From Thermodesulfobacteriota bacterium (lineage in GTDB: Bacteria > Desulfobacterota > BSN033 > UBA1163): a stretch of 64,000 nt of DNA. The stretch covers positions 5,995 to 69,994 of the forward strand of contig JBHGBJ010000006.1 of assembly GCA_041947025.1 (NCBI GenBank), written 5' to 3'. Positions 25,654-60,088 of this stretch are shown here, in pieces. A program made the translations under genes and the position numbers. The notes below the pieces were generated by a model. The model was not told the DNA's origin, did no database searches, and saw only the letters and a program-made list of their open reading frames with translations. Numbering within the stretch: position 1 is the first letter of the stretch; every line of letters starts with the position of its first letter.

Positions 25654-27753
25654 TTACTTATTTTTTTCCGTCCTTTTCTCCGGCCCTTTGGGTTCCTTCG
25701 CTCTCTCTATTCTTTTCTCCACGGGTTGGTCTTCCACAGGGCTTTGAGTCTCTTTTTCAACCGATTGGCGTTCCTTAAACGTTTCAACCGGTTTCTCCTG
25801 GGATCTTGATTTTTCTGTCCCTCTTTCCTGAGGCTGGAATTCTCTCTGTTTCTCTATTCCCTTTTCAGTCGGTCTGGACTGTTGACGGGTCTCTATTCCT
25901 CTTTCAGGGGTTCTCAATTCCTTCGGTTTTTGTGTTCCCTTCTCGTTTTGAGTTCCCTTCTCGGGAGGTTTGGTCTCCCGAGTTCTTTCCACTGTTCTCT
26001 CTTGAGGCTGAGACACTTTCTCTTTCGTTTTCTCAGCGGGACTGGGTTCCTTAGGTTTCTCTACGACCTTCTCCGTCGGCTTGATTTCTCTATTTTTTTC
26101 GACTCGCTCCGGTTGACGAGACCTTTCAATTGTTCTTTCTGAGGGTTTAAATTGTTTGGTCGTCTCGCCCCTCTTTTCCAATTCCTTTGACACCTGAGAT
26201 TTCTCGATGGTCTTCCCCACGGGGCTTGATTTTTCAGCCTTTGTCTCCGGCCGTTTCATCTCTCCGGGTTTCTGTACTTCTTTCTGGATCGGGCTGCGCT
26301 CTCCGGCCTTTTCAAATTCTCTCTGGACGGGTTTGCCCTCTTTGACCTTCAACGTCATTTCTCTTGGCGGCGACTCGGGCTTGAGAACCGAGGCGTTTCT
26401 CTCCTTGACGAGGGGACGTTTCTCCTTTGTTTCTCTAACCCGTATCTCTTTGATGGGCTCAGGGGGTCTTTTTGCCGGCGGAACCTCCTTGACCACTGGC
26501 ATCCTCGTTGTCCTTTCCGGTCTTATATCCGGCCCTACAATACTTATTCTTTCCTTGCGAAATGGATTTTCCCTGACATGGACATCCACGTGCTTGCCAG
26601 TCACGAACGTGTCGTTGTGAACGACTGTCACCGAATTTTTCACATTGACGTTCTTATACACAATCTTATTCACCTGGATATTTGTAATATTGACGCTGGT
26701 TATGTTGACACTGTGCGGGCCATAGTGGCCGCGGCCGTAGTAAATCTCTCTCGGGGCGAGGGGGATCCAGGCAACATATGTCGGAGTCCGAACCCAAGCC
26801 ACAAATCCGGGGCCCCAAAAGACAGCCCCTCGGGAGGGTGGAACCCAGCACCATCCGATCGTGGCGACAAAGGCCCACCTCCCATAGTGATAAGGCACCC
26901 AACCCCAGGGCTCGTAAGAGACCCAGACATAATCGCCAGCCATCCATACCCATCTTCCCATTCGATAAGGGGCCCACCCGGCAGAGGCAACAACCTTCGG
27001 TGTCCATACATAACCGTATCCGCTCGTATAGACCCACTTCCCGTATTCATCAAAGTCGGCGGAGTAAGCACTGAGCTCTTCAGGCAGGTGACGAACGGGT
27101 GGTCTCCATGCGGCAAGTTTCCCGTCCCTCTCACGGTTCCATCTTTCCCATTGATCAGGAGGTCCGAGTGGAGAAAGCTCCGCATAAGCCTCCTCATCGA
27201 GAGAGAGTGCGTAACCTGACTTCACTGTTCTCATTCCTCTCTTGGCCTCCACATCGACTGAACCTTTGAGCACGGAGATCTGATTCAGGCCATCGTCGGA
27301 GAGATCCACCATGAATATGGAAGGATCATAGGCTCGTATCGAAGAGATGGAAGTATCGATTTGGAGGATACTGTCTGTCTGACCTCTAAAATTGGCGTAG
27401 AGATGCCCTTCGTTTAGATAGAACTGTAAGGAATCTTTATCGAGGGTGATGATTTCGAGAGCGGATTCTTCATCAAGCCTTAGGTATGTCCCGTCTCTTA
27501 ACTGAAGCTCGAGTTTTCCTTCCTGCGGGATCCAAATCCGGTCGCCTTCCCGAAGCGGCATGTTGATTGAGGCAGGAACCCAGTCTTCTGTATCCTCTGT
27601 CCTGATCTGAACATCTCCCGAAATAAGACTGACACGCAATTCTCCAAGATCTTGTGAGTAAGAATGGGCGGGGAGAAGAAAAAGAGCTGATATGATTATG
27701 AAGAGCTTAAAGGCTTTCATTTCTTGGTCCTCCTTATTCTGAGTTACTGTCAA
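25654..27753 (-). CDS. secreted FecR-domain protein with W/Y/G-rich repeat region and ~300-aa K/E/P/R-rich low-complexity C-terminal tail
   Basis: Signal peptide (MKAFKLFIIISALFLLPAHSYSQ), FecR-like beta-sandwich segment (LISGDVQIRTEDTEDW...REGDRIWIP...LRDGTYLRLDEESALEI), then GRW/WV repeats (YRMGRWVWMAGDYVW...YHYGRWAFV), then EK/PE repeats to the C-terminus; DNA 25654-26600 shows degenerate periodic repeats. Confidence 0.6.
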   Translation of the reverse strand: MTVTQNKEDQEMKAFKLFIIISALFLLPAHSYSQDLGELRVSLISGDVQIRTEDTEDWVPASINMPLREGDRIWIPQEGKLELQLRDGTYLRLDEESALEIITLDKDSLQFYLNEGHLYANFRGQTDSILQIDTSISSIRAYDPSIFMVDLSDDGLNQISVLKGSVDVEAKRGMRTVKSGYALSLDEEAYAELSPLGPPDQWERWNRERDGKLAAWRPPVRHLPEELSAYSADFDEYGKWVYTSGYGYVWTPKVVASAGWAPYRMGRWVWMAGDYVWVSYEPWGWVPYHYGRWAFVATIGWCWVPPSRGAVFWGPGFVAWVRTPTYVAWIPLAPREIYYGRGHYGPHSVNITSVNITNIQVNKIVYKNVNVKNSVTVVHNDTFVTGKHVDVHVRENPFRKERISIVGPDIRPERTTRMPVVKEVPPAKRPPEPIKEIRVRETKEKRPLVKERNASVLKPESPPREMTLKVKEGKPVQREFEKAGERSPIQKEVQKPGEMKRPETKAEKSSPVGKTIEKSQVSKELEKRGETTKQFKPSERTIERSRQPERVEKNREIKPTEKVVEKPKEPSPAEKTKEKVSQPQERTVERTRETKPPEKGTQNEKGTQKPKELRTPERGIETRQQSRPTEKGIEKQREFQPQERGTEKSRSQEKPVETFKERQSVEKETQSPVEDQPVEKRIERAKEPKGPEKRTEKNK

Positions 27754-28082: not shown

Positions 28083-28502
28083 TCAACTTGTTTCAGATTT
28101 CTTTTTGGTCTTGTTCTCCATAGGAAAATTGGCCGCCTCCCATTCTGGGAATCCTCCTTTGAGTGCAAAGACCCTGGGATAACCTTTTTCTATGAATTGG
28201 CGTGCCACCCAGGCACTTGTCTCTTCACTCGGTCAGGAGCAATAGAATACAAGGGTCTTGCTTTTCGGATATTGCTTCAACCATGATCCGATTTCCTCGG
28301 GGTTTTTCCAGGTAGCTCCCGGAATCTTTTTTTCGCTGGCGTTCCATTCGTCATCTATTCGTACATCGAGAATGATCACATTAGGATCGCCGAGCATGGT
28401 TTTGAGCTCCTCTTTACTGATTCTAGGTGACTCTTGGGAGAAGGCGACTGTCGAAAGGAGTTGCATCAGAATCAGAATCGATCCGAATATAACCGTTTTC
28501 AT
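28083..28502 (-). CDS. periplasmic single-domain rhodanese (sulfurtransferase) with in-frame TGA at the catalytic position; candidate selenoprotein (Sec at 28233-28235)
   Basis: ORF 28233..28550 ends ...KTLVFYCS-TGA, but translation continues in the same frame PSEETSAWVARQFIEKGYPRVFALKGGFPEWEAANFP..., the conserved rhodanese C-terminal half. The TGA sits exactly 17 residues before the conserved GY, as the catalytic Cys does in GlpE/PspE. Signal peptide MKTVIFGSILILMQLLSTVAFSQ; start ATG 28502 after AGGTGG. Confidence 0.5.
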
Positions 28503-28702
28503 TTTTCCACCTCGTATGTTTAAATAACCGATAAGTATTTTACCAACCACATCTTGATAAGCAAATACTGTGGAGGCCGTATTTTTAGGGAAATATCGCT
28601 GTATTTCTTGCGGGGAGTGGTCGATTACAGTTTGAATTGTTTACATCGTGGGGTGGGATCTGAAAGTCACCAGGAACAATACGACTATATCGATACTCCT
28701 AA

Positions 28703-29719
28703 TTACTGTGCTGCCGCACCCCGGGCACGCTGTACTCGCGCCGAGGTAAGCGGATGTGTGGAGACGTAGGCATAGGCCCCCATCTCCTTTTCATCTCTCT
28801 TTGCAAGCCTTTCCATGATCGAGGCAAAGGCATTCGGGGAGTAGCCTTTCTTCTTGAGGAGTCCGAAGGCATATTCATCGGCTGCGGTTTCGAACTCACG
28901 AGAATACTTGGTCTGGGCCAATAACACCGGAACGCTGGCAACAGCAACGCTCAGTGATGCAGCATCAGAGGTCACGGCGGCGACCACGGCCCCAACAACT
29001 GAATTCTGTAACACGCTCCTCATCATATGGCGAAGCTCCACATGCCCGATCTCATGGGCCAATATCGCCAGCACTTCTTCTGTGGTCTGTGCAGCTTTCA
29101 CCATATCATCTGTGATGATAATGATGCCGCCAGGAAGAGCAAGGGCGTTCGGGCCGAAAACCGGTCCTGAGCGGAATTCCAGGCGGTAATAATCCCTTAA
29201 TGGCAAATCGCTGCGAAGCCTGTCAAACCCGTCGATTATTGCTTTCTGCGTATCATAATCGAGCCTTGTTCGGCGAAACCATCCTCTTTCATCCAACCAG
29301 GTCAGGGCCTGTCTGCCCAAGGACTGTTCCGTCTCCATCGGGATACGGGCGGCAATCCGTTCTGCTGCGGCCGGCAGACCGAAGAAATAAGCGGCCAACA
29401 GGGTGCAAAAAATGATCACAACACAGACCAGTGCGATACCCCAGCGCTCCTCGAGCCAGGCCACCGGGCCTTCGGAGGGGCTTTCCTGGGGGAGCGAGTC
29501 CAGAAAAGCAGAGTCCGGGCACGCAAATTGTCCGCCATCTGGAAGAGCGATGAAACGGTCGGACGACCCAATTCTCGGAGAAACCTTGAGTCCCAAGGTT
29601 GAATAACGCTTGGAAATAGGACCGGAAGTGAGCATCGCTTCCTCGTCCCCGAGATCCATTCTCGCCGGCAGGTCGATCGGCTGCCGACCGTCGAAGTAAT
29701 GGCCATCAATGGTAATCAT
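28703..29719 (-). CDS. M48-family zinc metallopeptidase (HtpX-like)
   Basis: HEIGHVELRH (HExxH) + downstream Glu (EFETAADEYA); one TM segment; start overlaps upstream DUF898 gene by 4 bp. Confidence 0.75.
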   Translation of the reverse strand: MITIDGHYFDGRQPIDLPARMDLGDEEAMLTSGPISKRYSTLGLKVSPRIGSSDRFIALPDGGQFACPDSAFLDSLPQESPSEGPVAWLEERWGIALVCVVIIFCTLLAAYFFGLPAAAERIAARIPMETEQSLGRQALTWLDERGWFRRTRLDYDTQKAIIDGFDRLRSDLPLRDYYRLEFRSGPVFGPNALALPGGIIIITDDMVKAAQTTEEVLAILAHEIGHVELRHMMRSVLQNSVVGAVVAAVTSDAASLSVAVASVPVLLAQTKYSREFETAADEYAFGLLKKKGYSPNAFASIMERLAKRDEKEMGAYAYVSTHPLTSARVQRARGAAAQ

Positions 29720-30963
29720 AGTGAAAGATCCACGTCAAAAAAGTCTACAGTTTCAGCTCCGATAGCTGTAACCGCACTCCTTTCGCCTCCCTGGAATTCA
29801 CTGAGTTCTCCTTCCTGCAGTCCCCGAAGGTTTTCTGCGCGGTATCTCAGCGTCCGCATAACCGCCCAGGGAATCAACAACCCTAATGAGACGGCGATCC
29901 CGAGGGCATTGGTCACGTAGAGTTTCAGTAAATCTCTGCAGCGCATGGTGGATTCAAAGCGGAGGGGCCCAAGCTGTGTATGATTCCAGACAAGATTACC
30001 GCTCCGCGCCCGGTTATAAGCGAATGCCAGCACATATCCGGCATACATCGGAACAGCCATGAGATGGGTGTAGATCCCCCATTTCTTTGTAGAGCCAAAC
30101 AGGATTCCCGCGAGTATCCCTGAGGGAATCAGTAGTGCAAGCAAGATCAGGCCGGAGACAAAATAGATCCTGAAGAATTGTCCGCCGGTGGCAGAAAAAG
30201 CCCCTTTTTTGCCGCCATAGGATGTATGTTCAACAATAAATTTTTTAAGTCGCTTGATCCACCAGGGATAGGAGAAACCGATCACGGCGAAGGGAATGCC
30301 AAGCATAAAAGGCTTTTCCGGCCAGATGGACATCATTCCAATGACAACGGCAAGAATGATGCCCCAGGCATAAAACACTTTCACGACGTCCAGGTAGCCG
30401 CCATCAAAATGGAACGTCATGTTCCGAAAGGCCGAATAACGGGCGTTGAACGCCGCCGAGCGGACGATCACCCAGGGGGAGACGACTAATCCTGCGGCTA
30501 AAATGTAGGGCAACAAAGAAGTGATCAAATGGCTTGCCGTGTAGTAAGCCAGGAATCCAATCGCTGCGATCACACGGCCCTTGAGGATCGGGATCGGTTG
30601 CCCCAAGAACTGGAAAGGTGTGCCTGCCAAGGTTGTGTGAGAATACAAATAGCGTTTCTTGCGCACCTTGGCCCATGCCGAAAAGATGCCGAAGGTCAGA
30701 AGGGTGAGGCAGAGGTTCACGATCCAAATCCGAAAATACTCCCGTGCTGAACCGTGGAACTCGAGTCTCATGCTAAATGTTTTGTGAGCCTCGTTATCTT
30801 CGCCTTGGGGTTGAAGCTTTTTTTCTGAGATTGCATCAATAATGGCCTTATGCCTTTCAGGATATCTCTCTTTATCAACATTGGCGGCCATCCACTCAAG
30901 GTGAGCTATGGGCAAAGGGCGGAGGGATTTGATGTATTCTTCAATGGTTTCTTCGCTAATCAT
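29716..30963 (-). CDS. DUF898 (YjgN-like) polytopic membrane protein
   Basis: 415 aa, ~8 TM segments with YjgN/DUF898-like pattern; translationally coupled (ATGA overlap) to the M48 peptidase gene. Confidence 0.6.
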   Translation of the reverse strand: MISEETIEEYIKSLRPLPIAHLEWMAANVDKERYPERHKAIIDAISEKKLQPQGEDNEAHKTFSMRLEFHGSAREYFRIWIVNLCLTLLTFGIFSAWAKVRKKRYLYSHTTLAGTPFQFLGQPIPILKGRVIAAIGFLAYYTASHLITSLLPYILAAGLVVSPWVIVRSAAFNARYSAFRNMTFHFDGGYLDVVKVFYAWGIILAVVIGMMSIWPEKPFMLGIPFAVIGFSYPWWIKRLKKFIVEHTSYGGKKGAFSATGGQFFRIYFVSGLILLALLIPSGILAGILFGSTKKWGIYTHLMAVPMYAGYVLAFAYNRARSGNLVWNHTQLGPLRFESTMRCRDLLKLYVTNALGIAVSLGLLIPWAVMRTLRYRAENLRGLQEGELSEFQGGERSAVTAIGAETVDFFDVDLSL

Positions 30964-31045: not shown

Positions 31046-32026
31046 TCACTGACTCTTGAAGAGGTTCCTGAATTGATCAAGGAGGACATACTGTTTTTGA
31101 GTCTCGCCCAAATATTTCTTGCCATCAAGAGGGGTGATGTCGATCTTCCTGTTCTTGGCCCACTCCAGAAATGCAGGGCTTCTGGCCGTCTTTAGCATCG
31201 CATCCTCCAGAATTTTGACCCGGTCGGGTGGAGTGTTAGGAGGTGCAACGAATCCCCTGACCGCAGCCATAACCGTCATGTTGTGGCCCAACTTACTGGG
31301 GAAAGGTACATCGGGAAAGACCGAATCCGGTGCATCCGAATAGACCAGAAGAGGACGAATTTTTCCCGCAGCCACCAGCGGCTGGGCGCTGTTGGTTGAG
31401 ATGATGGCAAAATCGATATGTTTTCCTGCAAGGCTGGAGAGAACCTCCCCTGAACCATCAAACGGAACCCAATTGGCCTTCATCCCCAATTTATCAACAG
31501 TGGCCAGGCCGCAGATATGGGAGGTGCTTCCTGGGGAGGGGACACCTCCGGACAGGGTCTTTTCCCTGGCAACCTTGAGGAATTCATCAAAGGTCTTCCA
31601 GTTGTCCGGATGGACCAAGAGAACCATATTGGTGATACAAAGGCCAAAGACATGGGTGAAGCCACTCGTTTTAAATTCAGTCTTAAAAAGGTACTCGTTC
31701 ATGATCGACTGGGGAATGCCATGATATAACAACGTATAGCCGTTCGGATCGGCTTTCCAAACCTTGGTCAATCCCATCTTCCCCCCGGCCCCCGGGAGGT
31801 TCTCAAGGATGATGTCCACCCCGAGGGTCTTACTGAGGTAGGGTGTAAACCCTCGTGGTTCCATATCGATTGATCCTCCTGCAGATTGTGGAACGATCAC
31901 TCTGACTGCCTTGGCGGGAAATTTTTCGGCAGCTTCCGTGCTTGCCATCCAAATACAAAGACAGAATGCCAGTGCCAGAATGATTGCACAACCTTTCCTC
32001 CCTCGTAACCCTTTTAGATTTTCCAT
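31046..32026 (-). CDS. Bug/TctC-family substrate-binding protein (orphan, no tctAB adjacent)
   Basis: 326 aa, signal peptide, ...VRVIVPQSAGGSIDMEPRGF...PGAGGKMG... TctC pattern. Confidence 0.75.
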   Translation of the reverse strand: MENLKGLRGRKGCAIILALAFCLCIWMASTEAAEKFPAKAVRVIVPQSAGGSIDMEPRGFTPYLSKTLGVDIILENLPGAGGKMGLTKVWKADPNGYTLLYHGIPQSIMNEYLFKTEFKTSGFTHVFGLCITNMVLLVHPDNWKTFDEFLKVAREKTLSGGVPSPGSTSHICGLATVDKLGMKANWVPFDGSGEVLSSLAGKHIDFAIISTNSAQPLVAAGKIRPLLVYSDAPDSVFPDVPFPSKLGHNMTVMAAVRGFVAPPNTPPDRVKILEDAMLKTARSPAFLEWAKNRKIDITPLDGKKYLGETQKQYVLLDQFRNLFKSQ

Positions 32027-32117: not shown

Positions 32118-32324
32118 TTAGGCACTCTTTTGATACTGGGAAGCGTGCCAATCTACAACCCCCCTGATCATCTTTTGGTAGGACATGCCATGCTTTTGTG
32201 CTTCTTTCTTAAAAAAGCCCACACTCGATTTTTTCAAGGAGATGGTTATCTTGATGTTTTCCCCTTTCAATACCAGTTGATCCGCCGGGGGAAGAAAATC
32301 TTCGATAACTCTCAATTCCCCCAT
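32118..32324 (-). CDS. BrnA-like (CopG/RHH type II antitoxin) protein, orphan
   Basis: 68 aa; ...KITISLKKSSVGFFKKEAQKHGMSYQKMIRGVVDWHASQYQ matches the BrnA pattern (ISIRL..S...LK..A...G.pYQ.lI...L); no DUF497/BrnT ORF upstream (only 33 bp to ligA stop). Confidence 0.5.
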   Translation of the reverse strand: MGELRVIEDFLPPADQLVLKGENIKITISLKKSSVGFFKKEAQKHGMSYQKMIRGVVDWHASQYQKSA

Positions 32325-32357
32325 CGGTTGGTCAGCATATTCTTGGAAGATCCAAAT

Positions 32358-34442
<2,085 letters not shown>

Positions 34443-34767: not shown

Positions 34768-35208
34768 ATGTTCAGGGGCCGGTATGAGTATACCATAGAT
34801 TCCAAGGGCCGGATCAGCATTCCTTCAAGGTTCAGAGAAATCCTCAATGAAAGGTATGACAATCGTTTAGTCATCACCAATTTTGACCACTGCTTGGTTG
34901 CCCTCCCATTTGAAGAATGGTCCGCTTTAGAGCAGAAGGCAAGTTCCCTCTCCTTGGTGAAGAAGGAAGCCAGGACCTTTCTGAGGTTTTTTTATTCGAG
35001 CGGCATCGACTGTGTGATCGATAAGCACGGAAGGCTCCTTATCCCCCAGACGTTAAGGGATTATGCCAACCTTCAAAAGGATGTCGTGTTGGTGGGAGAG
35101 GGAAAAAAGATTGAGATCTGGGCCAAAGAGCGCTGGGATGAGGAATTCCGGAGATCCCAGGAGAGTTTTGAGCAGATCAGCGATACTCTGGCCACTCTCG
35201 GGCTTTAA
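34768..35208 (+). CDS. mraZ: transcriptional regulator MraZ
   Basis: 146 aa, MFRGRYEYTIDSKGRISIPSRFR... duplicated MraZ/SpoVT-AbrB fold. Confidence 0.9.
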   Translation: MFRGRYEYTIDSKGRISIPSRFREILNERYDNRLVITNFDHCLVALPFEEWSALEQKASSLSLVKKEARTFLRFFYSSGIDCVIDKHGRLLIPQTLRDYANLQKDVVLVGEGKKIEIWAKERWDEEFRRSQESFEQISDTLATLGL

Positions 35209-35264
35209 TACGACGACGAACGATAAACAATGAACGATGAACATTGGACGATAGACGATGAGCA

Positions 35265-36191
35265 ATGGACGATGGGCTGCGAACGAAGCACATTCCGGTT
35301 TTAGTCGAAGAGGTGATGACCTTCTTAAGATGCGAACCGGGTCGTACCTATGTGGATGCGACATTAGGGGGAGGCGGCCATGCCTTCGAGATTTTGAGAC
35401 GGACCGCTCCCAGTGGAATTCTGATCGGATTGGATTGGGACGAAGAGGCCATCTCCGAGGCGAGAAAGGCATTAGCGCCCTTTGGTGAGCGGGCTAAAAT
35501 ATTCCGCGAAAATTTTGTTCTTCTCCCTGAATTACTGAGGGAGATAAAGAGAGAGCCGGTCGATGGAATACTGCTCGATTTAGGGCTCTCTTCCTTTCAG
35601 TTGGAAAGGGAGGAGAGGGGATTCAGCTTTCAACGAGAGGGCCCATTGGATATGAGGATGGATCAGCGGCTGGATCAAACAGCGAGCTACCTTGCCAACC
35701 GCCTTTCTGCGGATGAGTTGAAAGAGATTCTCCAGCGCTACGGGGAAGAGAGATGGGCGAAGCGGATTGCCAAGGCGATCGTTCAGGAGAGAGGGCAGGG
35801 TTCTATCGAGACGACCCAACAATTGAGAAGGATCGTCCGTCAGGCCGTCCCGAGAAGATTTCACCCCCGAAAGATTGATGTGGCGACGAAGACCTTTCAG
35901 GCCTTCCGTATCAGGGTCAATGACGAGTTGGAAAATCTCAGAGGGATACTGGAGACCGGGTGGAAATGCTTAAAAAAGGGGGGAAGGATGTGCATCATCT
36001 CTTTTCACTCCCTTGAGGATCGGATGGTTAAAGAAAACTTCCGGAAACTGGAAGGGCGAGGAGCCGATGGGTCGAGCCCGGAAGCCGTGATGCGCGTCCT
36101 CACGAAAAAGCCCATCGTCTCTTCTGAGGAGGAGCAAAGAAGAAACCCGAGATCCCGGAGCGCCAAATTGAGGTGCGCGGAGAGATTGTGA
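35265..36191 (+). CDS. rsmH: 16S rRNA (cytosine1402-N4)-methyltransferase
   Basis: 308 aa; HIPVLVEEV...YVDATLGGGGHA...LLDLGLSS...RMD... canonical RsmH/MraW blocks. Confidence 0.9.
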   Translation: MDDGLRTKHIPVLVEEVMTFLRCEPGRTYVDATLGGGGHAFEILRRTAPSGILIGLDWDEEAISEARKALAPFGERAKIFRENFVLLPELLREIKREPVDGILLDLGLSSFQLEREERGFSFQREGPLDMRMDQRLDQTASYLANRLSADELKEILQRYGEERWAKRIAKAIVQERGQGSIETTQQLRRIVRQAVPRRFHPRKIDVATKTFQAFRIRVNDELENLRGILETGWKCLKKGGRMCIISFHSLEDRMVKENFRKLEGRGADGSSPEAVMRVLTKKPIVSSEEEQRRNPRSRSAKLRCAERL

Positions 36192-36199
36192 GGAAATCT

Positions 36200-36227
36200 C
36201 GTAGGGAACGCATAGATGCGTTCCCTA
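36200..36227. repeat. perfect 13-bp-stem palindrome (gtagggaacgcat AG atgcgttccctac) between rsmH and ftsL
   Basis: Exact reverse-complement arms separated by 2 nt, 9 nt after rsmH stop; no U-tract. Confidence 0.7.
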
Positions 36228-36246
36228 CTGTTAGAGGGCAAAGACC

Positions 36247-36522
36247 ATGACCAGGAGTGTGAGTCGAATATCCATCTTTATCCTCTTTCTGCTTATTTTA
36301 GTCGGTGGGTCCTTGTTCTATGTTTGGTCGAGAATTCAGGTCATCCAGCTTGGATACGAGATATCGAATGCCCTGAAGGCGGAGCGGGCACTCGTTGAGG
36401 CGAATAAACGCTTGCGAGTGGAGATCGCCACACTCAAATCCTACACCCGGATCGAAAAATTTGCAGTGGAGGAACTGAGAATGGCCAAACCCAAACCTGA
36501 TCAGGTGATCGTGATCCGATGA
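36247..36522 (+). CDS. ftsL: cell division protein FtsL
   Basis: 91 aa, single N-terminal TM (ISIFILFLLILVGGSLFYVW) + coiled-coil; position between rsmH and ftsI; stop overlaps ftsI start (ATGA). Confidence 0.7.
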   Translation: MTRSVSRISIFILFLLILVGGSLFYVWSRIQVIQLGYEISNALKAERALVEANKRLRVEIATLKSYTRIEKFAVEELRMAKPKPDQVIVIR

Positions 36523-38489
36523 AGCGGCAATCTATCAATTGGTTCAAAGTCAGGATCATTTTCATCTCGACTCTCCTCCTCTTTTCCTTCGGATTGATCG
36601 TAGGAAGAATGTTTCAGCTTCAGGTGCTGAAAAAGGAGCAGCTCTATAAACTGGCTGCTCAGCAGCAGTTGGTTCAAATCCCGTTCGTCCCAAAGCGGGG
36701 GATCATTTACGATCGGAATGAGAATGAGCTGGCGGTCAGCATCGAGGTCGATTCCGTTTACGCAGATCCTCTTCGGGTGGTTGACGCGAACAGGACAGCC
36801 CGGGATCTTGCTCCCATCCTCCAGATCGATCGGGGGGAATTGCGACAGAGGTTGAAGAACCGTCGGTCCTTTGAATGGGTTCAAAGAAAGATTTCTTCGA
36901 ATGAGGCCGAGAAGATCAAGGCCCTTCAGCTTCCGGGGATCCATTTCCTGAAAGAGAACCGAAGGTTCTATCCCAATTCCCAATTGGCTGCCCAAATCAT
37001 TGGCTTCGTTGGCCTCGATTCCAAGGGGCTTGAGGGACTCGAATTCCAATATAATACCCTTCTCAACGGAATAAACCATGTGTGGACAATGGGGAGAGAT
37101 GCCCGGGGTCGGGAGATCCTGATGGGCGATCCTTTGCCCGAGCCGGAGGATCACCACAAGAATCTCTTCTTGACGGTGGACAAAAACATCCAACATGTGG
37201 CTGAGACAGAGCTCAGCAAAGCCGTTCAAAAATGGGGGGCCAAGGGAGGAATGGTGATCGCCATGGATCCCCGGACCGGAAAGATCCTGGCCATGGCCTC
37301 TTACCCTTTTTTCAATCCAAACCAGTTTATCCAATATCAGCCAAAGTTTTGGAGGAATCGAGCGATCTCCGACGTCTTTGAGCCGGGCTCCCTTTTTAAG
37401 GTCTTTCTTGCAGCGGCCGCTTTGGAGGAAAAATTGGTGCGGCCTTCCGATTCTTTCTTTTGCGAAAACGGAGCCTATACGGTTTATGATCGAACCATCC
37501 ACGATCACTCCAAACATGGCTGGCTTACCTTTCAGCAGATCCTGAAGGTTTCGAGCAATATCGGGGCGTCGAAGGTCGGCGAGAAGATGGGGAAAGAGCG
37601 TTTCTACAAGTATATTTGTGGATTCGGATTTGGAGAAAAAACACGGGTCGACCTTCCGGGAGAAGGCAAAGGGATCGTCCATCACCCGCGATACTGGCCT
37701 CCGGTTGCCCTCGACACAATTTCTTTTGGCCAGGGAATTTCCGTGACGGGAATCCAATTGGCGGTTGCCCTTTCGGCCATTGCCAATGGTGGATTCCTGA
37801 TGAGGCCTTACGTCGTGGAGAAGATTACGAATGAGAAAGGTGAAATCACTCAGGCCTTTCAACCGGAGGTGGTTAGAAGGGTGATCTCAGAGGAAACGGC
37901 CCAGAAGGTAACTGCAATGCTCAAGACAACGACAGAAAAAGGAGGGACCGGAGAACAGGCTGTCCCCGCCGGATTTGAGGTGGCAGGAAAGACAGGGACG
38001 GCCCAGAAGGTGGAACCACTCGGGGGTTACTCCGACCATCGGTTTAACAGCGGGTTCATGGGATTTGCTCCTGCCAATGACCCCAGGCTCGTTCTCCTTG
38101 TTGTGATTGACGAACCGCGAGGCGAGTCGTACGGAGGAACCGTGGCTGCTCCAGTATTCAAGGCCATTATGGAAAAGGTTCTCCCCTATCTCAATGCGAT
38201 TCCTAAAGGGACGCTGATCGTAAAGAAGGAACCCGATTCTGTCCCTCATTCGGAGACCTTGGAAGCTGAAACCTTGAGAGAGGAGATCAGGGTAGGGAAA
38301 GGGCCAGAAAGGATCGTCATGCCAGACCTCACCGGGTTGTCCATGCGTAATGCATTGAATCGCATCGAAGGAAGAGGATTGATTATCAAGGTATCGGGTA
38401 TGGGAAAGGTCGTGGAGCAGGCCCCCAAAGCAGGAACGGTGATTGAAAAGGGGGATATCTGTTATTTGAAGTTTCAGTCACCGTCGTAA
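36519..38489 (+). CDS. ftsI: peptidoglycan D,D-transpeptidase FtsI (PBP3), with C-terminal PASTA domain
   Basis: 656 aa; SxxK (SLFK), SxN, KTG(T) (KTGTAQ) motifs; C-terminal PASTA-like (RIVMPDLTGLSMRNALNRIEGRGL). Confidence 0.9.
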   Translation: MKRQSINWFKVRIIFISTLLLFSFGLIVGRMFQLQVLKKEQLYKLAAQQQLVQIPFVPKRGIIYDRNENELAVSIEVDSVYADPLRVVDANRTARDLAPILQIDRGELRQRLKNRRSFEWVQRKISSNEAEKIKALQLPGIHFLKENRRFYPNSQLAAQIIGFVGLDSKGLEGLEFQYNTLLNGINHVWTMGRDARGREILMGDPLPEPEDHHKNLFLTVDKNIQHVAETELSKAVQKWGAKGGMVIAMDPRTGKILAMASYPFFNPNQFIQYQPKFWRNRAISDVFEPGSLFKVFLAAAALEEKLVRPSDSFFCENGAYTVYDRTIHDHSKHGWLTFQQILKVSSNIGASKVGEKMGKERFYKYICGFGFGEKTRVDLPGEGKGIVHHPRYWPPVALDTISFGQGISVTGIQLAVALSAIANGGFLMRPYVVEKITNEKGEITQAFQPEVVRRVISEETAQKVTAMLKTTTEKGGTGEQAVPAGFEVAGKTGTAQKVEPLGGYSDHRFNSGFMGFAPANDPRLVLLVVIDEPRGESYGGTVAAPVFKAIMEKVLPYLNAIPKGTLIVKKEPDSVPHSETLEAETLREEIRVGKGPERIVMPDLTGLSMRNALNRIEGRGLIIKVSGMGKVVEQAPKAGTVIEKGDICYLKFQSPS

Positions 38490-38540
38490 TCCCCCCTTCT
38501 CTCCCCTGTAGTAAAGGCGAGCTGGGAGGGATTAGCGGCC

Positions 38541-40082
38541 ATGATTGCAGCTATGGAATTAAAGAAATTATTAGAGGGCGTCGAGGTTAAAAAGGTTACG
38601 GGAGACCTCCACAAAGAGATCGAGGGAGTGGCTTACCATTCCAAACGGGTGAAGAAGGGTTTTCTGTTTGTGGCCATTCGGGGGATGGAGATGGATGGCC
38701 ATCGATTTGTCGGAGAGGCGGTCGAAAGAGGTGCGGATGGGGTTCTTTTGGAGGAAGATCGAGAGATTGCCGGGAGAACGGTCATCGTCTCCCCGAACAG
38801 CCGGCAGGCCCTGGCACAGGTTTCATCCAATTTTTACGGGAATCCATCATCCCGGCTGCGACTGATCGGCATCACCGGGACGAATGGGAAGACAACGATC
38901 ACCTATCTCTTGGAATCGATCTTCAAAAAGGCCGGATATTCCGTGGGTGTCATCGGGACCATCAATTACCGATACGGTCAGAAGCTGACCCTTGCATCCA
39001 ACACCACTCCGGAATCGTTGGATCTTCAGAGAATCCTGGGAGAGATGGCGCAGGAAAAGATTTCTCATGTCATCATGGAAGTTTCTTCCCACGGACTGGA
39101 CCTCGACCGGGTTTACGGATGTCAATTTGACGGGGCGATCTTCACGAATCTCACGACCGAACATCTTGATTATCACAAGACGATGGAGCAATACTTCGAG
39201 AGTAAAAAGAGGCTCTTCTCAGAGTCTTTGATGAAGAGCCTCAAGACCAGAAGGTTTGCAGTGACAAACCAGGATGACCCCAGGGGCGAGGAGATCGTTC
39301 AGGGGACCGACCTTCCTGTATTCCGTTACGGATTGAGCCCTTCCTGTGATATCTCTGCGGATCAGGTGAAGTCCACCTTCGACGGCCTTTCGTGCAGGGT
39401 GAAAACCCCGCGGGGCGAATTCTTCTGTCGATCGAAATTGATCGGCGAGCATAATGTTTACAATATCCTGGCCGCTGCCGCCGCAGGAATAGCGATGGAT
39501 ATCCCATTGGAGGCGGTCAGGGATGGGATCGGATCATTGGAAGGCGTGTCGGGAAGATTGGAAAAGATCGAGAACCTGAAAGGGCTTCACGTCATCGTGG
39601 ACTATGCACATACCCACGATGCCTTGGAGCGAGTCCTCGTGGGATTGAGGAATGTCTTGAGAAATTCGAATCAGGGCAACGGGAAGTTGGTCACGGTCTT
39701 CGGTTGCGGGGGGGACCGGGATCGGACGAAGCGGCCTTTGATGGGGAAGGTGGCTGCCAGATATAGTGATCTCAGCATTCTCACATCGGACAATCCAAGA
39801 ACGGAAGACCCTTTGGCGATCATGAATGAAGTGGAAAGGGGATTCAAATCCCTCTCTTTATTTGAGTGGCCCCGGGACGAAATCGCCTCGTGGAGATCCA
39901 AGAAGGGGTATCTGAAGATTCCGGACAGGAGAGAGGCCATCCGGGTTGCGATCGGGCTCGCTCAACCCTCCGACACGGTTCTCATCGCCGGCAAAGGCCA
40001 TGAGGATTATCAGATCATCGGAAAGCAGAAATTTCCTTTGGATGACCATGTCGAGGCTAAGAAGGCCCTGGAGGAAAAGTGA
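38541..40082 (+). CDS. murE: UDP-N-acetylmuramoyl-L-alanyl-D-glutamate--2,6-diaminopimelate ligase
   Basis: 513 aa; GITGTNGKTT P-loop; DNPR motif (SDNPRTEDP) indicating meso-DAP specificity. Confidence 0.9.
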   Translation: MIAAMELKKLLEGVEVKKVTGDLHKEIEGVAYHSKRVKKGFLFVAIRGMEMDGHRFVGEAVERGADGVLLEEDREIAGRTVIVSPNSRQALAQVSSNFYGNPSSRLRLIGITGTNGKTTITYLLESIFKKAGYSVGVIGTINYRYGQKLTLASNTTPESLDLQRILGEMAQEKISHVIMEVSSHGLDLDRVYGCQFDGAIFTNLTTEHLDYHKTMEQYFESKKRLFSESLMKSLKTRRFAVTNQDDPRGEEIVQGTDLPVFRYGLSPSCDISADQVKSTFDGLSCRVKTPRGEFFCRSKLIGEHNVYNILAAAAAGIAMDIPLEAVRDGIGSLEGVSGRLEKIENLKGLHVIVDYAHTHDALERVLVGLRNVLRNSNQGNGKLVTVFGCGGDRDRTKRPLMGKVAARYSDLSILTSDNPRTEDPLAIMNEVERGFKSLSLFEWPRDEIASWRSKKGYLKIPDRREAIRVAIGLAQPSDTVLIAGKGHEDYQIIGKQKFPLDDHVEAKKALEEK

Positions 40083-41479
40083 CCATTACCATTGAGGAGG
40101 TCTTGCGGGCAACCGGGGGAAGACTCCTTCAAGGAGAGGGGAGAGCCTTCTTTCAGGGGATTTCCACGGATTCAAGATCGGTGACCGAAGGGGAACTCTT
40201 CGTCGCCCTGAAGGGTCCCCGCTTCGACGGACACCATTTTGCCCTAAAGGCTCTTGAGAAGAGAGCAGGAGGCGTGCTGGTCGAAGAAGATCAGGCCAAG
40301 GATATCCGGTGGAATGGTTATCGACCCAAGGCGGTCATCGCTGTTAAGGACACCCTGAAAGCCTTAGGAGACATAGCCCGGGAGAAGAGGCAAAGATATC
40401 GCACCCCGGTCGTCGCGTTAACCGGGAGCAACGGAAAGACGACGACCAAGGAGATGGTCTCTGCCTGTCTCGAGACAACCTTCCCCGTTCTCAAGACAAA
40501 GGAGAATTTGAACAATCTCATCGGGCTTCCTCTCACCCTTCTAAAACTCACGGAGAAGGAGAGAGTGGTAGTCCTCGAAATGGGAATGAACGTTCCGGGT
40601 GAGGTCCGGAGGCTGACCGAGATTGCCGAACCCGACGTGGGATTGATCACCAATATCCACATCGTTCATCTCGAAGGAATGGGAAGTCTGGAAAGGGTGA
40701 AGGAGGAGAAGGGAGAACTCTTCCGAAAGATGCGAAGGGACGGAACAATTCTGGTCAATCAGAATGATCCCCATGTGATCGATCTGGCGAGTGAGTTTCC
40801 CGGCCAAAAGATCACCTACGGGGTTGAAAAATCCGCAGATGTGATGGCTAAGGGGATTCGACTCAAAGGACTGGAAGGGACTTCGTTTAAGCTGATCTTG
40901 GAGGGGGAAGAGAGCGAGGTTGTCCTTCCCCTATTGGGAAGACATTTCGTTCCCAATGCTCTGTCCGCGATTGCCGTGGCAAGCCTCTTCGGGATCGAGG
41001 TCGAGAAATCCAAAGAAGCACTCGAACATTTTCAGCCTTTCCACATGAGGATGGAGATGATCCGCCTTGAGGGTGGAAAGATCCTGATTGATGACACCTA
41101 TAATGCCAATCCCAGATCCATGGAAACGGCCCTGGAGACGCTGGCTGAGGCCAAGGGAAAGGGAAGGGCCATCGCCGTATTAGGCGACATGATGGAATTG
41201 GGAGATTTTAGGGAAGAGGCCCATCTGCAAATCGGGCAGAAGGTCAAGGAACTTTCGATCGATCTGCTTCTTGTCATGGGAGAAATGGCACCTCTCGTCG
41301 CGGGATCGGCGATCCGTCGTGGATTCGAGCCGAAGAAGGTCAGGATCGTGGAGGGCTATTCGGAGGCCATCTCCATTCTTAGAGAGGTGGCCCAGGAAGG
41401 AGACTGGATACTGATCAAGGGATCAAGGAGGATGGCGATGGAGAAGATCGTTGAGGGCTTGATCGAGAGGAGGGCTTAA
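40079..41479 (+). CDS. murF: UDP-N-acetylmuramoyl-tripeptide--D-alanyl-D-alanine ligase
   Basis: 466 aa; GTG start overlapping murE stop; [13 protein letters not shown]-loop. Confidence 0.9.
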
Positions 41480-41483
41480 AGGA

Positions 41484-42563
41484 ATGCTTTATCATCTCCT
41501 CTATCCTCTTCATGAGTATTTCTCCTTTCTCAATGTTTTTCGGTATATCACCTTCAGGACGATCTATTCGATTTTGACCGCCCTTCTGATCAGTTTCGTC
41601 GTCGGGCCTTGGCTGATCAAGAAGTTGAGGGCTTTTCAGATTCAACAGGTGGTGAGGGAGGATGTCCCCAGCCGGCACATGGTCAAGAATGGGACCCCCA
41701 CGATGGGAGGGAGCATGATCCTCGCTGCCGTCCTCATCCCGACCCTCTTCTGGTCTGACCTGACCAATCGCTATATCTGGGTCGTTTTGCTGACGACCTT
41801 GGGATTTGGGGTCCTGGGCTTTCTGGATGACTATAAGAAGCTCCTGGATAAGAAAGGAATCGGCCTCAAGGCCCGATACAAATTCCCCATCCAGGTCGCG
41901 ATGGGGCTTGTCACCAGCCTGGTCCTTTTTTATGGCTTTGATCACGACTCGAGACTGATCTTCCCGTTCTTTAAAAAGGTCATGCCGAATCTGGGGGATG
42001 GAGGATATGTCCTCTTTGCCATGCTTGTGATCGTTGGTTCTGCCAATGCGGTTAACCTGACGGATGGTCTGGACGGACTGGCGATCGGGCCTGTCCTCAT
42101 CGCCAGCGGGACCTTCATGCTTTTCTGTTACCTTGCAGGGAACTTCCGGTTCGCCGGTTATCTCCAGATTCCTTTCGTCCGAGGCAGTGGCGAATTGACG
42201 GTTCTGTGCGGAGCCTTGGTCGGTTCGGGCCTGGGTTTTCTCTGGTTCAATACCTATCCGGCCCAGATCTTTATGGGAGATGTCGGCTCTCTGGCCCTGG
42301 GAGCGGCATTGGGGACGATCGCGGTGATCATCAAGCAGGAGATCCTCCTGGTGATCGTCGGAGGAATCTTTGTCATCGAAGTGCTTTCGGTCATCATTCA
42401 AGTGATCTCCTATCAGTTGAGGAAAAAAAGGGTTTTCCGTATGGCACCCATTCATCACCATTTTGAATTGAAAGGTTGGGCCGAGCCGAAGATCATCGTC
42501 CGGTTCTGGATCATCGGCATCATCCTCGGATTGGTTGCGATCAGCACGCTGAAGCTGAGGTAA
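41484..42563 (+). CDS. mraY: phospho-N-acetylmuramoyl-pentapeptide-transferase
   Basis: 359 aa polytopic; ...K.GTPTMGG..., [13 protein letters not shown], ...[12 protein letters not shown] motifs. Confidence 0.9.
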
Positions 42564-42637
42564 ATTACCGGGGAATGGATTCGAGTGTTTGGGCGGGAAA
42601 GGGCAATGCGAGGAGATATTCAACGACAATTTCCAAA

Positions 42638-42658
42638 TCCCCTGCCTACCGGCAGGCA
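42638..42658. repeat. REP-like palindromic element (core copy) in mraY-murD spacer
   Basis: cccctgcctaccggcaggcac. Confidence 0.6.
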
Positions 42659-42719
42659 CCAAATTCAAAACAAATTCCAAATTCAAATTTCTGAATATCT
42701 AAACTCTTGAATTTGGTGG

Positions 42720-44162
42720 TTGGAATGTATTCGGTGCTCGGAGTTTGGAGCTTGGGATTTTCGCTACGGAGTTGAATTGAAATCGTCAACGAGTGTGTCA
42801 AAAGGGTTGGATCTCAGTGGCAGGAGAGTTCTGGTGGTGGGTTTGGCTCGGACCGGATTGGCAACGGTGAAGTTTCTCAGAACCAAGGGTTCGATCGTCA
42901 GCACGACAGAGATGATGCCAAAGGAACAGATGAAGGCTGCCGTCCAAGAATTGGAGGGAATCAATATTCCGATGGAATGGGGTGGCCATCGAGAAGAGAC
43001 TTTTCTCAGTCCCGATCTCATCGTGGTAAGCCCCGGGGTCGATTTGAACATTGGGCCGATCCAAAAGGCCCTGGGAAAAGGGATTCGCGTCATCAGCGAG
43101 ATCGAACTGGCTTACCACTTCATCCACATTCCCATCATTGCCGTCACAGGAACGAACGGAAAGACCACCACCACCTTATTGATTGGCGAAATGGTGAAGG
43201 AAGCAGGAACGAAAGTGGGGGTGGGAGGAAACGTCGGTGACCCGCTGATCCTGTTTGCAGAGGGGGGGGATCGATGGGAGGTTCTGGTGGTTGAGATCTC
43301 CAGCTTTCAATTGGAGGCGATCGAAGACTTTCGGCCCCGATTTTCAATTCTTCTCAACATCACCGAGGATCACTTGGATCGCTACCGGCGTTACGAAGAT
43401 TATATTGAGGCAAAGGTCCGGATCTTCATGAACCAGGATTCGGGTGATGTGGCGGTCCTCAATCAAGACGATCCCATGGTGAGGGCCAATCAAGCAAAGG
43501 TGAAGGCGAAGAAGCTCTTCTTCAGCTTGAAGGAGAGACTGGAGCAGGGTGCTTTTCTATCTGACCAAAGCATCGTCCTCAGGCTCGGGAAGAAAGAGGA
43601 GGATTACTCCTTAGCGAAGGCTTCCTTAAAAGGGATCCACAATGTGGAGAATATGATGGCGGCGATTACCGCTGCCAGAGCCTTCGGTTGTCCGAAGAAG
43701 CCGATCGAGACCGTTCTTTCCCGGTTTAAGGGGCTTGAGCATCGTGTTGAATTTGTGCGGGAGATCGAAGGCATCCGTTTCTACAATGACTCAAAGGGAA
43801 CCAATGTGGGCTCCGTGGTGAAATCTCTCCAGAGTTTTTCAGACCCCATCGTCTTGATAGCCGGAGGAAAGGATAAGATGGGGGATCTTTCCCCCCTCAA
43901 AGAATTGATCCGGGATCGGGTCAAGCAACTGATCCTCATCGGAGAGGCTAAGGAAAGAATGAATCGGGAGCTTGGAAGATACACGGATACGACCATTGCC
44001 AAGACCCTGGAAGAGGCCGTGACACTTGCTTATCAATCGGCGAAGAAGGGAGAAGTGGTTCTTCTTTCACCAGCCTGTTCGAGTTTCGATATGTTCAAAG
44101 ATTACAAGGAGAGAGGAAAGGTCTTTAAGGAAGCCGTATTTAGATTAGGAAAGAATGAATGA
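42720..44162 (+). CDS. murD: UDP-N-acetylmuramoylalanine--D-glutamate ligase
   Basis: GRRVLVVGLARTGLA, GTNGKTTTT P-loop. First ~25 codons of the ORF-track frame (MECIRCSEFGAW...) are probably not translated; GTG 42795 or TTG 42810 likely true start. Confidence 0.85.
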   Translation: MECIRCSEFGAWDFRYGVELKSSTSVSKGLDLSGRRVLVVGLARTGLATVKFLRTKGSIVSTTEMMPKEQMKAAVQELEGINIPMEWGGHREETFLSPDLIVVSPGVDLNIGPIQKALGKGIRVISEIELAYHFIHIPIIAVTGTNGKTTTTLLIGEMVKEAGTKVGVGGNVGDPLILFAEGGDRWEVLVVEISSFQLEAIEDFRPRFSILLNITEDHLDRYRRYEDYIEAKVRIFMNQDSGDVAVLNQDDPMVRANQAKVKAKKLFFSLKERLEQGAFLSDQSIVLRLGKKEEDYSLAKASLKGIHNVENMMAAITAARAFGCPKKPIETVLSRFKGLEHRVEFVREIEGIRFYNDSKGTNVGSVVKSLQSFSDPIVLIAGGKDKMGDLSPLKELIRDRVKQLILIGEAKERMNRELGRYTDTTIAKTLEEAVTLAYQSAKKGEVVLLSPACSSFDMFKDYKERGKVFKEAVFRLGKNE

Positions 44163-44403
44163 CAAATGTCAAAGCTCAAAGGAAGCTCGAAATCTAAATG
44201 TCAAAAAATTTGACATTTAGTCATTTGTCATGAATTTGACCGGAACGTGCCCCGCAAGCCCCGCCTTGTAGGCGGGGTAAAGGGGCACTATATGAACGAT
44301 GATACCTTTCCGGGAAGCCCCGGCCTGTGGCCGGGGAGCTTCACCTTTGAACTTTGGAATTCTGAGAGATTTTCTAATTTTCAGGTATCGGCGATGGGGC
44401 AGG

Positions 44404-45507
44404 ATGAGCAAAGGTAAACGAAGATTCGACTATATTCTATTAATCGTAACCCTTGCCTTAATTGGAGTCGGGATTGTGATGGTCTACAGCACGAGTGCGA
44501 TCCTGGCCGGAGACCGTTTTCAGGATCCGTACTACTTCTTAAAGAGGCAAGCCCTCTATGCAGGGATTGGTTTCGTCCTGATGATCCTGATGATGTTCTT
44601 CCCTTACGAGGTTCTGAAACGATTCGCCTACCCGATCCTGATCCTTTCCATCCTCTCCTTGATTGCCGTCCTGATCCCGGGGATTGGCCACAAAGCGGGA
44701 GGGTCCATGCGCTGGCTGAAGATTCAATTCTTCTCCTTTCAGCCTTCGGAATTTGCCAAGTTAGGTTTGATCATCTTTTTGGCCTACTTTTTAACCAAGA
44801 AGGAGGAGAAGATTCGAAGCTTCTCGTTTGGTTTTCTTCCGACCATCCTTCTCTCCGGTGTGGTCATCGCCCTGGTGGTGAAAGAGCCCGATTTTGGAGC
44901 CGCCCTCTTCCTGACCGTGGTGGTTTTTCTCCTTCTTTTCGTCAGCGGTGCCAGGTTGATCTACGTCGCCGGCGCTCTTCTGATCGCCGCCCCTGTTGCC
45001 TATTATTTCATCATGAATGCGGGGTACCGGTACAAAAGGCTGATGAGCTTTATCCGGCCCTGGGAGGACCCTACGGGGACCAGTTTCCAGATCATTCAAT
45101 CCTTTCTCTCCTTCGGCTCGGGAGGCCTCTTCGGATTAGGGCTGGGAGAAGGAAGGCAGAAACTCTTCTTTCTTCCTGCTCCCCATACGGATTTCATCTT
45201 TTCCATCATCGGAGAGGAGTTGGGATTGGTCGGGGCGATGATCGTGGTGCTCCTTTTCTTCATTTTGACCTTAAGAGGGGTTCAGATCGCCCTTTCCGTT
45301 GAGGATCGGTTTGGGGCTTATCTGGCACTCGGAATTACGCTGATGATCTCTCTGCAGGCGGTCATCAATATGACGGTGGTCTTAGGACTCCTTCCCACAA
45401 AAGGGTTAACCCTTCCTCTGGTCAGTTACGGGGGGACGTCCTTGGTTGCGAACCTGGTTGGGGTCGGGATTCTTCTTCACCTCTCGACCCAGATGGATCG
45501 GAGATGA
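44404..45507 (+). CDS. ftsW: peptidoglycan glycosyltransferase FtsW (SEDS family)
   Basis: Start at ATG 44404 (MSKGKRRFDYILLIVTLALIGVGIVMVYS); 10 TM SEDS pattern; ORF-track N-extension covers the murD-ftsW hairpin spacer. Confidence 0.85.
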   Translation: MSKGKRRFDYILLIVTLALIGVGIVMVYSTSAILAGDRFQDPYYFLKRQALYAGIGFVLMILMMFFPYEVLKRFAYPILILSILSLIAVLIPGIGHKAGGSMRWLKIQFFSFQPSEFAKLGLIIFLAYFLTKKEEKIRSFSFGFLPTILLSGVVIALVVKEPDFGAALFLTVVVFLLLFVSGARLIYVAGALLIAAPVAYYFIMNAGYRYKRLMSFIRPWEDPTGTSFQIIQSFLSFGSGGLFGLGLGEGRQKLFFLPAPHTDFIFSIIGEELGLVGAMIVVLLFFILTLRGVQIALSVEDRFGAYLALGITLMISLQAVINMTVVLGLLPTKGLTLPLVSYGGTSLVANLVGVGILLHLSTQMDRR

Positions 45508-46610: not shown

Positions 46611-46709
46611 TCTATTTAGTCTTTTTCGTCTATCTCGTTAACTTAACAAACCAGATAGGCCAGAAGAACCAGACAGACTAGACAAACCAGATAGACCAGA
46701 AAGACGAGA

Positions 46710-48080: not shown

Positions 48081-48087
48081 ATTCGGA

Positions 48088-48211
48088 GTTCGGAATGCGG
48101 TATCCCAAATTCGGAATTCGGAGTTCGGAATGCGGAGTGAAAGATTTATATTCCGCATTCTGCGTTCCGCAATCCGCATTTGATAAATTCCGCACTCTGC
48201 ATTCCGCAATA
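48088..48211. repeat. 124-bp imperfect inverted repeat built from TTCGGAAT(G)CGG / CCGCATTCCGAA words (murC-murB spacer)
   Basis: attcggagttcggaatgcggtatcccaaattcggaattcggagttcggaatgcggagtg ... tattccgcattctgcgttccgcaatccgcatttgataaattccgcactctgcattccgcaat. Confidence 0.7.
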
Positions 48212-48213
48212 GA

Positions 48214-49122: not shown

Positions 49123-49150
49123 TACGGAATAAGGGGTTGGCGATCAGTCC

Positions 49151-50083: not shown

Positions 50084-50149
50084 AGAGGAATCCCCATTCT
50101 CTCCCTCCGTTTCTAAGGGGGGGTAGGGAGGGGTTAGGCCATTCGTGAT

Positions 50150-50977: not shown

Positions 50978-51004
50978 AAGGACGGGGGAGGAGGTGATTA
51001 CGAG

Positions 51005-58435: not shown

Positions 58436-58455
58436 TTTTTATCCCCCACAACAGA

Positions 58456-60068: not shown

Positions 60069-60088
60069 AAATGTCCTCCTCTAAACGC

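Follow-up and report, generated by a model that had tools for sequence, protein, structure and literature searches.

The minus strand of the 64,000-nucleotide stretch analysed here (the window; contig JBHGBJ010000006.1 of assembly GCA_041947025.1, labelled in the NCBI record as a Thermodesulfobacteriota metagenome-assembled genome, MAG) carries, from position 28502 to 28083, a rhodanese gene that is interrupted by an in-frame TGA codon. This internal TGA almost certainly encodes selenocysteine (Sec), and the gene very probably specifies the 139-residue precursor of an exported rhodanese of the NCBIfam family NF041203, in which UGA-90 is read as Sec and for which we propose a role in sulfur relay. 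Judged from its sequence, the gene is a plain member of this already known and curated selenoprotein family.

Reading frame and domain of the interrupted gene

The gene starts with ATG at 28502-28500 of the minus strand, and its codons 88, 89 and 90 are TGC (28241-28239), TCC and TGA (28235-28233). An earlier note on this DNA had pointed out that the listed open reading frame (ORF) stops at this TGA and that the same frame runs 49 codons further. Indeed, the frame stays open for 49 codons (PSEETSAWVARQFIEKGYPRVFALKGGFPEWEAANFPMENKTKKKSETS), up to a second TGA at 28085-28083. The GenBank record of the product (P0001) annotates 89 residues, described as a "rhodanese-like domain-containing protein". 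GTG 28550, the start given in the ORF list, was ruled out, because the orthologues share a Met start at 28502 and have in-frame stops upstream of it.

The product that stops at the TGA matches the Pfam rhodanese profile PF00581 over positions 2-69 of 102 (33.2 bits), the 49-residue tail alone matches positions 74-102 (19.9 bits, E = 0.001), and the read-through product covers positions 2-102 (58.7 bits). The tail is thus the missing C-terminal part of a rhodanese, as the earlier note had claimed. Only the read-through product spans the full profile; a product ending at the TGA would be missing the loop of the active site and the final third of the fold. Apart from the rhodanese gene, none of the window's 29 long ORFs ending with TGA gains a complete domain when extended in frame. 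The rhodanese fold is also seen in the AlphaFold model of a homologue with Cys at the Sec position (P0027; mean predicted local distance difference test score, pLDDT, of 79.5, above 90 in the domain and 83 in the loop block), which matches solved rhodaneses with TM-scores of ~0.6-0.8 and a root-mean-square deviation of ~2 Å.

NF041203.1 (rhodanese_LYCAU) is an equivalog model for a "rhodanese-related (seleno)protein" with a curated cutoff of 115 bits. It matched the read-through product over profile positions 5-126 of 126, with 157.8 bits when codon 90 was given as C and 150.9 bits when it was given as X. The next-best NCBIfam models all fell below their cutoffs: ChrE (NF033833) scored 55 bits against 120, TsoB (NF045694) 36 against 805 and GlpE (NF001195) 25.5 against 102, so the protein does not belong to the ChrE group of rhodanese-family chromate resistance proteins. 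The Y-C-x-U motif of NF041203 is present as TAT TGC TCC TGA at 28244-28233 and is kept in the orthologues. The window protein shares this motif, the size, the single-domain architecture and the existence of Cys homologues with the family, and its motif differs only in F for L and S for A (FYCSU versus LYCAU), neither of which is essential. Rhodanese selenoproteins with a CxU motif are listed in two reviews (PMC13188914, PMC9312934), and a UxU variant was described in 2007 for Olavius symbionts (PMC1976440). Together with the NF041203 score, the reviews agree with the statement of the earlier note that rhodanese-related sulfurtransferases are a reported bacterial selenoprotein family.

Conservation of the TGA codon and of a SECIS-like stem-loop

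A first protein search returned 23 relatives with 69-100% identity, nearly all of them exactly 89 residues long, suggesting that the gene caller had cut them at the same codon. DNA of the relatives was taken from NCBI, ENA, JGI and Logan assemblies; in the profile search of genome contigs the single protein gave no match, whereas an alignment used as the query did. The corresponding codon is TGA in 19 distinct homologues, each with an intact in-frame tail of the pattern ...P[SN]EETSAW..GY..LKGG[FW].EW.... Where the whole protein aligns, these sequences are 44-88% identical to the window protein; a copy from Sericytochromatia (L022) matches only in part, with ~38% identity. The earlier note had reasoned that relatives ending at this codon, with unrelated sequence downstream, would speak for a true truncation; what we found instead was a conserved in-frame tail in all 19 sequences. 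In comparisons with six close orthologues the ratio of non-synonymous to synonymous differences per site (pN/pS, Nei-Gojobori) is 0.11-0.29 after the TGA and 0.24-0.38 before it. Being as low or lower, this ratio indicates that selection on the protein is no weaker in the tail than in the head.

The profile search found 1330 relatives, of which the best 120 were listed; together with those of the first search, 125 sequences were classified at the motif. Seventy end right after YCx, 27 are full length with Y-C-S-C, that is, with Cys at the Sec column, 17 have "W" at this column, and six have Arg, Gln, Ser or Leu; the other five end after FY (three) or are frameshifted or divergent (two). Cys at the Sec column (CSC) is also present in loci L019 and L033. 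True Trp forms were ruled out, because the codon is TGA in both cases checked (L026 and L032); the gene call of L026 (506-970) also runs past the true stop, genetic code 4 having been applied to a short contig. Database proteins with W at the Sec column include P0024, P0026, P0028, P0030-P0034 and P0038. The gene thus combines a UGA kept in orthologues, coding constraint downstream of it and Cys in some homologues, the combination expected of a selenoprotein gene.

The earlier note had further reported a GUGCC-UGGGU-GGCAC hairpin downstream of the TGA, resembling a bacterial selenocysteine insertion sequence (SECIS) element. The hairpin is indeed there, 17-31 nucleotides after the UGA (28216-28202), and is part of the minimum-free-energy fold. 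From an ungapped alignment of 15 distinct TGA regions, RNAalifold derived two helices of 5 base pairs and an apical loop of 5 nucleotides, which agree with the structure that we had drawn. In this alignment 90.7% of the cells are paired; with the 3′ partners displaced by one to three columns, the value falls to 31-45%. Four pairs differ at both bases, with, for instance, U-A for C-G in the L005 group and C-G for U-A in L020 and L022, and none of 500 shuffles reached the covariation score. The second loop base is an invariant G, although its codon encodes W, R, G or S. All five pairs of the in-register upper helix are formed in 17 of the 19 TGA forms and four of the five in L014 and L022; L020 has a 6-base-pair hairpin shifted by two nucleotides. 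In the non-Sec comparators, in contrast, the same register gives none of the five pairs (Cys form L033) or two (Cys form L019 and the canonical rhodanese L025). Bacterial SECIS elements are described (PMC1088965) as stem-loops that follow the UGA directly on its 3′ side and have a G in a small apical loop, and the stem-loop of the window gene has these features. Rfam returned no matching family for it, either for the whole window at the gathering threshold or for the gene at E up to 10, where only noise was seen.

The positions of the elements of the gene are collected in Table 1. A promoter scan upstream of the gene gave no match, and the only terminator-like matches of the same scan were the complement of the SECIS-like hairpin and one site within the gene, both on the plus strand.

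Table 1. Predicted elements of the rhodanese gene, with positions in the window.
Feature	Positions	Strand	Remarks
Read-through coding sequence	28083..28502	-	139 codons plus stop; product MKTV...LVFYCS-U-PSEETSAW...KSETS
Shine-Dalgarno-like GAGGTGG	28507..28513	-	4 nucleotides 5′ of ATG 28502; read from the sequence
Predicted Sec-type signal peptide, residues 1-22	28437..28502	-	MK, hydrophobic core, AFS cut before QE; by sequence pattern
Rhodanese domain, residues 30-124	28131..28415	-	Pfam PF00581, E = 8.5e-16; best solved relatives are rhodanese domains
TGC, Cys88, first residue of CxU	28239..28241	-	Invariant in alignments A3, A4 and A5; TGA instead only in UxU forms L031 and L032
In-frame TGA, codon 90, predicted selenocysteine	28233..28235	-	Same codon TGA in 19 homologues; Cys in L019, L033 and 27 proteins
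SECIS-like element	28192..28228	-	Lower helix 28228-28224 with 28196-28192; upper helix 28216-28212 with 28206-28202; loop UGGGU 28211-28207
True stop codon TGA	28083..28085	-	Orthologues end within a few codons of the same point

The CxU motif and the reaction it may serve

The N-terminus (MKTVIFGSILILMQLLSTVAFS, followed by QE) is hydrophobic, with the n-h-c layout of a signal peptide, and is conserved in close orthologues, so that the signal peptide of the earlier note holds as a sequence pattern. More distant members, all Cys forms included, have lipoboxes (LTGC, LLGC, FSGC) instead. Since signal peptides or lipoboxes occur throughout, the family appears to be extracytoplasmic, and the window rhodanese would be exported to the periplasm.

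The earlier note had placed the TGA at the position of the catalytic Cys, counting 17 residues back from a conserved GY. The count is correct: Sec90 lies 17 residues ahead of the G of GY, the spacing found in canonical rhodaneses (for example IVLYCASGERS...GY in L025), and the ungapped alignment with the best solved relative (6mxv, E = 1.2e-21) sets the Cys of its YLYCGSGFRS on the Sec column. The family profile alignment, however, puts the Cys of GlpE, PspE and L025 on Cys88, followed by a two-residue gap, and L024 (CRGPYC type) aligns to the profile without gaps, with its first Cys on Cys88 (the L025 and L024 sequences came from fetched loci, and those of GlpE and PspE were entered by hand). 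Also in favour of Cys88, the central strand of the P0027 model ends with TLVFY and is followed by the loop C-S-C-D-S-E and then by a helix, so that the first Cys would take the canonical place at the end of the strand, with the Sec column at +2. Thus, the recoded codon does lie in the active-site loop at the expected distance from GY, but the alignments disagree as to which residue takes the place of the catalytic Cys. Most likely, Cys88 and Sec90 work as a pair. The family motif is CxU, with CxC in the Cys forms and UxU in some members, and Cys88, as a further point in its favour, is kept in the few members with Arg, Gln, Ser or Leu at position 90.

In the mechanism that we propose, SelB with Sec-tRNA(Sec) would bind the stem-loop beginning a short distance beyond the UGA, within a few nucleotides of it, and deliver Sec, as in the established bacterial mechanism. 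The signal peptide would send the protein across the inner membrane, giving a mature periplasmic protein of ~117 residues. There the Cys88-Ser-Sec90 pair may accept sulfane sulfur or selenium from donors of the thiosulfate or polysulfide type, forming a persulfide, perselenide or selenenylsulfide intermediate, and may then transfer it to a periplasmic acceptor. Such a protein would relay sulfur in the manner of Sud and PspE, enhanced by Sec, and would not be a housekeeping sulfurtransferase of the cytoplasm.

A periplasmic relay of sulfane sulfur, possibly of selenium, by a Cys/Sec pair is favoured by analogy, because Cys forms lie beside a PhsA/PsrA-like operon, one member (L020) is fused to a cytochrome, and Sud is among the solved relatives. 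In two MAGs (L019, 2466-11350, and L033, 717-11431), a Cys-form lipoprotein (CSCDNEGTS) adjoins genes for a sigma-54 activator, a porin (Porin_5/DUF3373) and a PhsA/PsrA-like molybdoenzyme, the last with 586-600 bits on the PhsA model, whose cutoff is 694. In L033 the cluster extends to genes for a 4Fe-4S subunit, NrfD, a TorD-like chaperone and cation efflux; the ORFs of L019 match these in size and order, the domain scans there ending at the molybdoenzyme. This psr/phs linkage was seen only for the Cys forms L019 and L033, and no psr/phs gene was found near the rhodanese among the 10 window ORFs scanned against Pfam. In a Desulfohalobiaceae MAG (L020, JAZKRN010000113.1, ~1544-3157, plus strand), a 537-residue read-through ORF consists of a signal peptide, an NF041203 domain (TYCA-TGA-PQESSS, 135.8 bits) and an octahaem cytochrome c with eight CxxCH motifs. 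A further locus, L023, contains a degenerate-looking relative.

Like the window protein, the E. coli thiosulfate sulfurtransferases GlpE and PspE are single-domain proteins with a rhodanese fold of ~100 residues, in which a catalytic loop links the central strand to a helix, and PspE is likewise exported to the periplasm. The window protein, however, has a loop two residues longer, C88 and U90 in place of one Cys, and Sec; with this insertion, the ambiguous register and the NF001195 score given above, it cannot be classed with the GlpE-type enzymes, in which a single catalytic Cys opens a loop of six residues. Sud, the polysulfide-sulfur transferase of Wolinella succinogenes (PDB 1qxn), is also a periplasmic single-domain rhodanese and is detectable by sequence (E = 6e-6). 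Sud works with Psr. Cys-form family members beside a Psr/Phs-like reductase operon can be likened to the Sud/Psr couple, but Sud is only a distant relative of the window protein, it has a single Cys and no Sec, and no psr/phs neighbour of the window gene was found among the ORFs scanned. TsoB, which resembles a rhodanese/DsbD fusion and has a UxxxxU motif, also has Sec near the active site of a rhodanese domain; it differs from the window protein in its DsbD part, in its motif and in having two Sec residues rather than one.

A more specific version of the relay seems to us doubtful. In it the protein, not simply a sulfurtransferase with selenium in place of sulfur, would serve as a dedicated chalcogen relay of the periplasm, in which Cys88/Sec90 would pass through a selenenylsulfide or perselenide state and hand polysulfide sulfur or selenium directly to respiratory reductases, either Psr/Phs-type molybdoenzymes or multihaem cytochromes. 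The natural octahaem fusion of L020 is what makes multihaem cytochromes candidate partners.

The main alternative to sulfur relay keeps the insertion of Sec but not the sulfurtransferase role: a reversible selenenylsulfide would form between Cys88 and Sec90, and the protein, using the rhodanese fold only as a scaffold, would be a periplasmic thiol/selenol oxidoreductase that might reduce polysulfide, selenite or protein disulfides. We regard this as possible, if somewhat unlikely. It would agree with the joint conservation of the two chalcogen positions (CxU, CxC and UxU), with the treatment of CxU as a redox-type motif in reviews, with the electron-transfer module fused to L020, and with the two additional residues of the loop relative to GlpE-type enzymes. 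On the other hand, the rhodanese fold with its loop-plus-helix geometry appears intact in the P0027 model, and the natural Arg, Gln, Ser or Leu at position 90 next to Cys88 fit a single-Cys persulfide carrier, in which the second position would act as an enhancer.

Several results weigh against the proposed Sec-dependent relay, or limit it. None of selA, selB and selD was found in the window (10 of ~55 ORFs were scanned against Pfam), ARAGORN and Rfam found neither a tRNA-Sec nor any RNA gene there, and the window has no other candidate for TGA read-through; likewise, ARAGORN found no tRNA or tRNA-Sec in 11 related loci. The 71-nucleotide segment containing the hairpin is no stabler than its shuffles (z = 0.04), and the hairpin therefore owes its significance to conservation across orthologues, not to folding energy. 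Part of this conservation could come from recent ancestry or from protein constraint; the covariation reflects few independent events among related sequences, and the hairpin is kept where Sec is replaced by Arg (AGA; L027-L029) or Gln (CAA; L030), members that may be recent losses of Sec. The structural model is that of a 40%-identical Cys homologue (P0027), not of the window protein, with the loop at a pLDDT of 83. Finally, since the neighbours of the window gene are not conserved in close orthologues, the neighbourhood was rejected as a clue to function, which for this genome is argued by analogy only. As to the missing machinery, Thermodesulfobacteriota are among the phyla richest in selenoproteins (PMC13188914), and Sec competence of the source genome is therefore likely.

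That no Sec machinery was seen in the window, the 89-residue GenBank product and a frameshifted related copy (L007) would all suit a TGA that is a real stop. The rhodanese would then be truncated, or its gene a pseudogene, and what follows in frame would be a decaying remnant. We consider this very improbable, because the same TGA is followed by an intact frame in 19 distinct sequences, pN/pS downstream is as low as upstream or below it, the truncated product would be left with an incomplete fold, and a SECIS-like stem-loop is conserved after the TGA. Scarcely credible is an assembly or sequencing error for TGC or TGT, or a code (4 or 25) in which TGA means Trp or Gly: the W of some database entries hints at it, but the independent NCBI, ENA, JGI and Logan assemblies all have TGA, the W entries checked were TGA mistranslated by the gene caller, and TGA terminates 29 of the 55 complete long ORFs of the window, genes of the dcw cluster among them, with short extensions only. 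As the ordinary stop of about half of the window genes, TGA points to a standard genetic code.

Apart from the rhodanese gene, 79 open codons follow the TGA stop of ligA (32118-32357, minus strand; …MGELRVIEDFLPPADQLVLKGENIKITISLKK…). This extension was rejected as a read-through product, because it seems to be a small gene of its own, with its start at an internal Met.

Family variants, neighbouring genes and significance

The family is varied, and the Cys form, the Arg form, the UxU form and the cytochrome fusion all score above the NF041203 cutoff. L016 (241-1290, plus strand) has two tandem Sec-rhodanese paralogues, each with its own TGA (FYCG-TGA and FYCA-TGA) and hairpin. Two loci, L031 (2001-2450, plus strand) and L032 (456-860, plus strand), have two in-frame TGAs in FY-TGA-x-TGA-P (UxU), followed by the same hairpin. 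Arg (AGA) takes the place of Sec in five contigs (L027-L029; the gene of L027 is at 6001-6414) and Gln (CAA) does so in L030 (432-842), in both cases with Cys88 and the full hairpin kept. The Arg form follows two FAD_binding_2/Succ_DH_flav_C genes with ferredoxins and precedes a trypsin-TPR gene, and the UxU member L031 also adjoins a trypsin-TPR gene. A close orthologue (P0015, JGI 3300075153) is located ~350 nucleotides upstream of a gene with the UGSC domain PF24696; a UGSC-containing protein is listed as another selenoprotein family in a review.

In the window, the neighbours of the rhodanese gene encode a FecR/DUF6600 protein (25654-27753), an M48 peptidase with DUF7092 (28703-29719), a DUF898 protein (29716-30963), TctC (31046-32026) and LigA (32358-34433), after which comes the dcw cluster. 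The FecR/DUF6600 gene lies downstream of the rhodanese on the minus strand and encodes 699 residues with a signal-like N-terminus and a repetitive, K/E/P-rich C-terminal half. The 17 same-strand ORFs at 34768-53502 (plus strand), many of them ending with TGA, resemble by eye, in their order and sizes, a complete dcw cluster for division and cell wall from mraZ to ftsZ, which, if true, would place the window on the chromosome. Further on, at 57380-60847 (minus strand), three of four consecutive ORFs (57380-58435, 59631-60068 and 60089-60847) have similar zinc-ribbon-like CxxC...CxxC N-termini (LLICPKCKLL..., MYCTNCGTLN... and MLVCPKCNIE...), with a lipoprotein-like ORF (58456-59385) among them.

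The immediate consequence of these results is a correction of annotation: the deposited 89-residue protein should become a selenoprotein precursor of 139 residues, in which residue 90 is Sec. The same error is found in dozens of metagenomic entries, which are either cut at the TGA or given a spurious Trp by a code-4 gene call. What is known of selenoproteins is unchanged, since the literature and NCBIfam already cover the family with its CxU motif and UxU variant. For the organism, the conserved recoded TGA is indirect evidence that this MAG decodes selenocysteine. If the rhodanese did pass sulfur or selenium directly to respiratory reductases, it would be a selenium-dependent component of sulfur/selenium respiration in Thermodesulfobacteriota.

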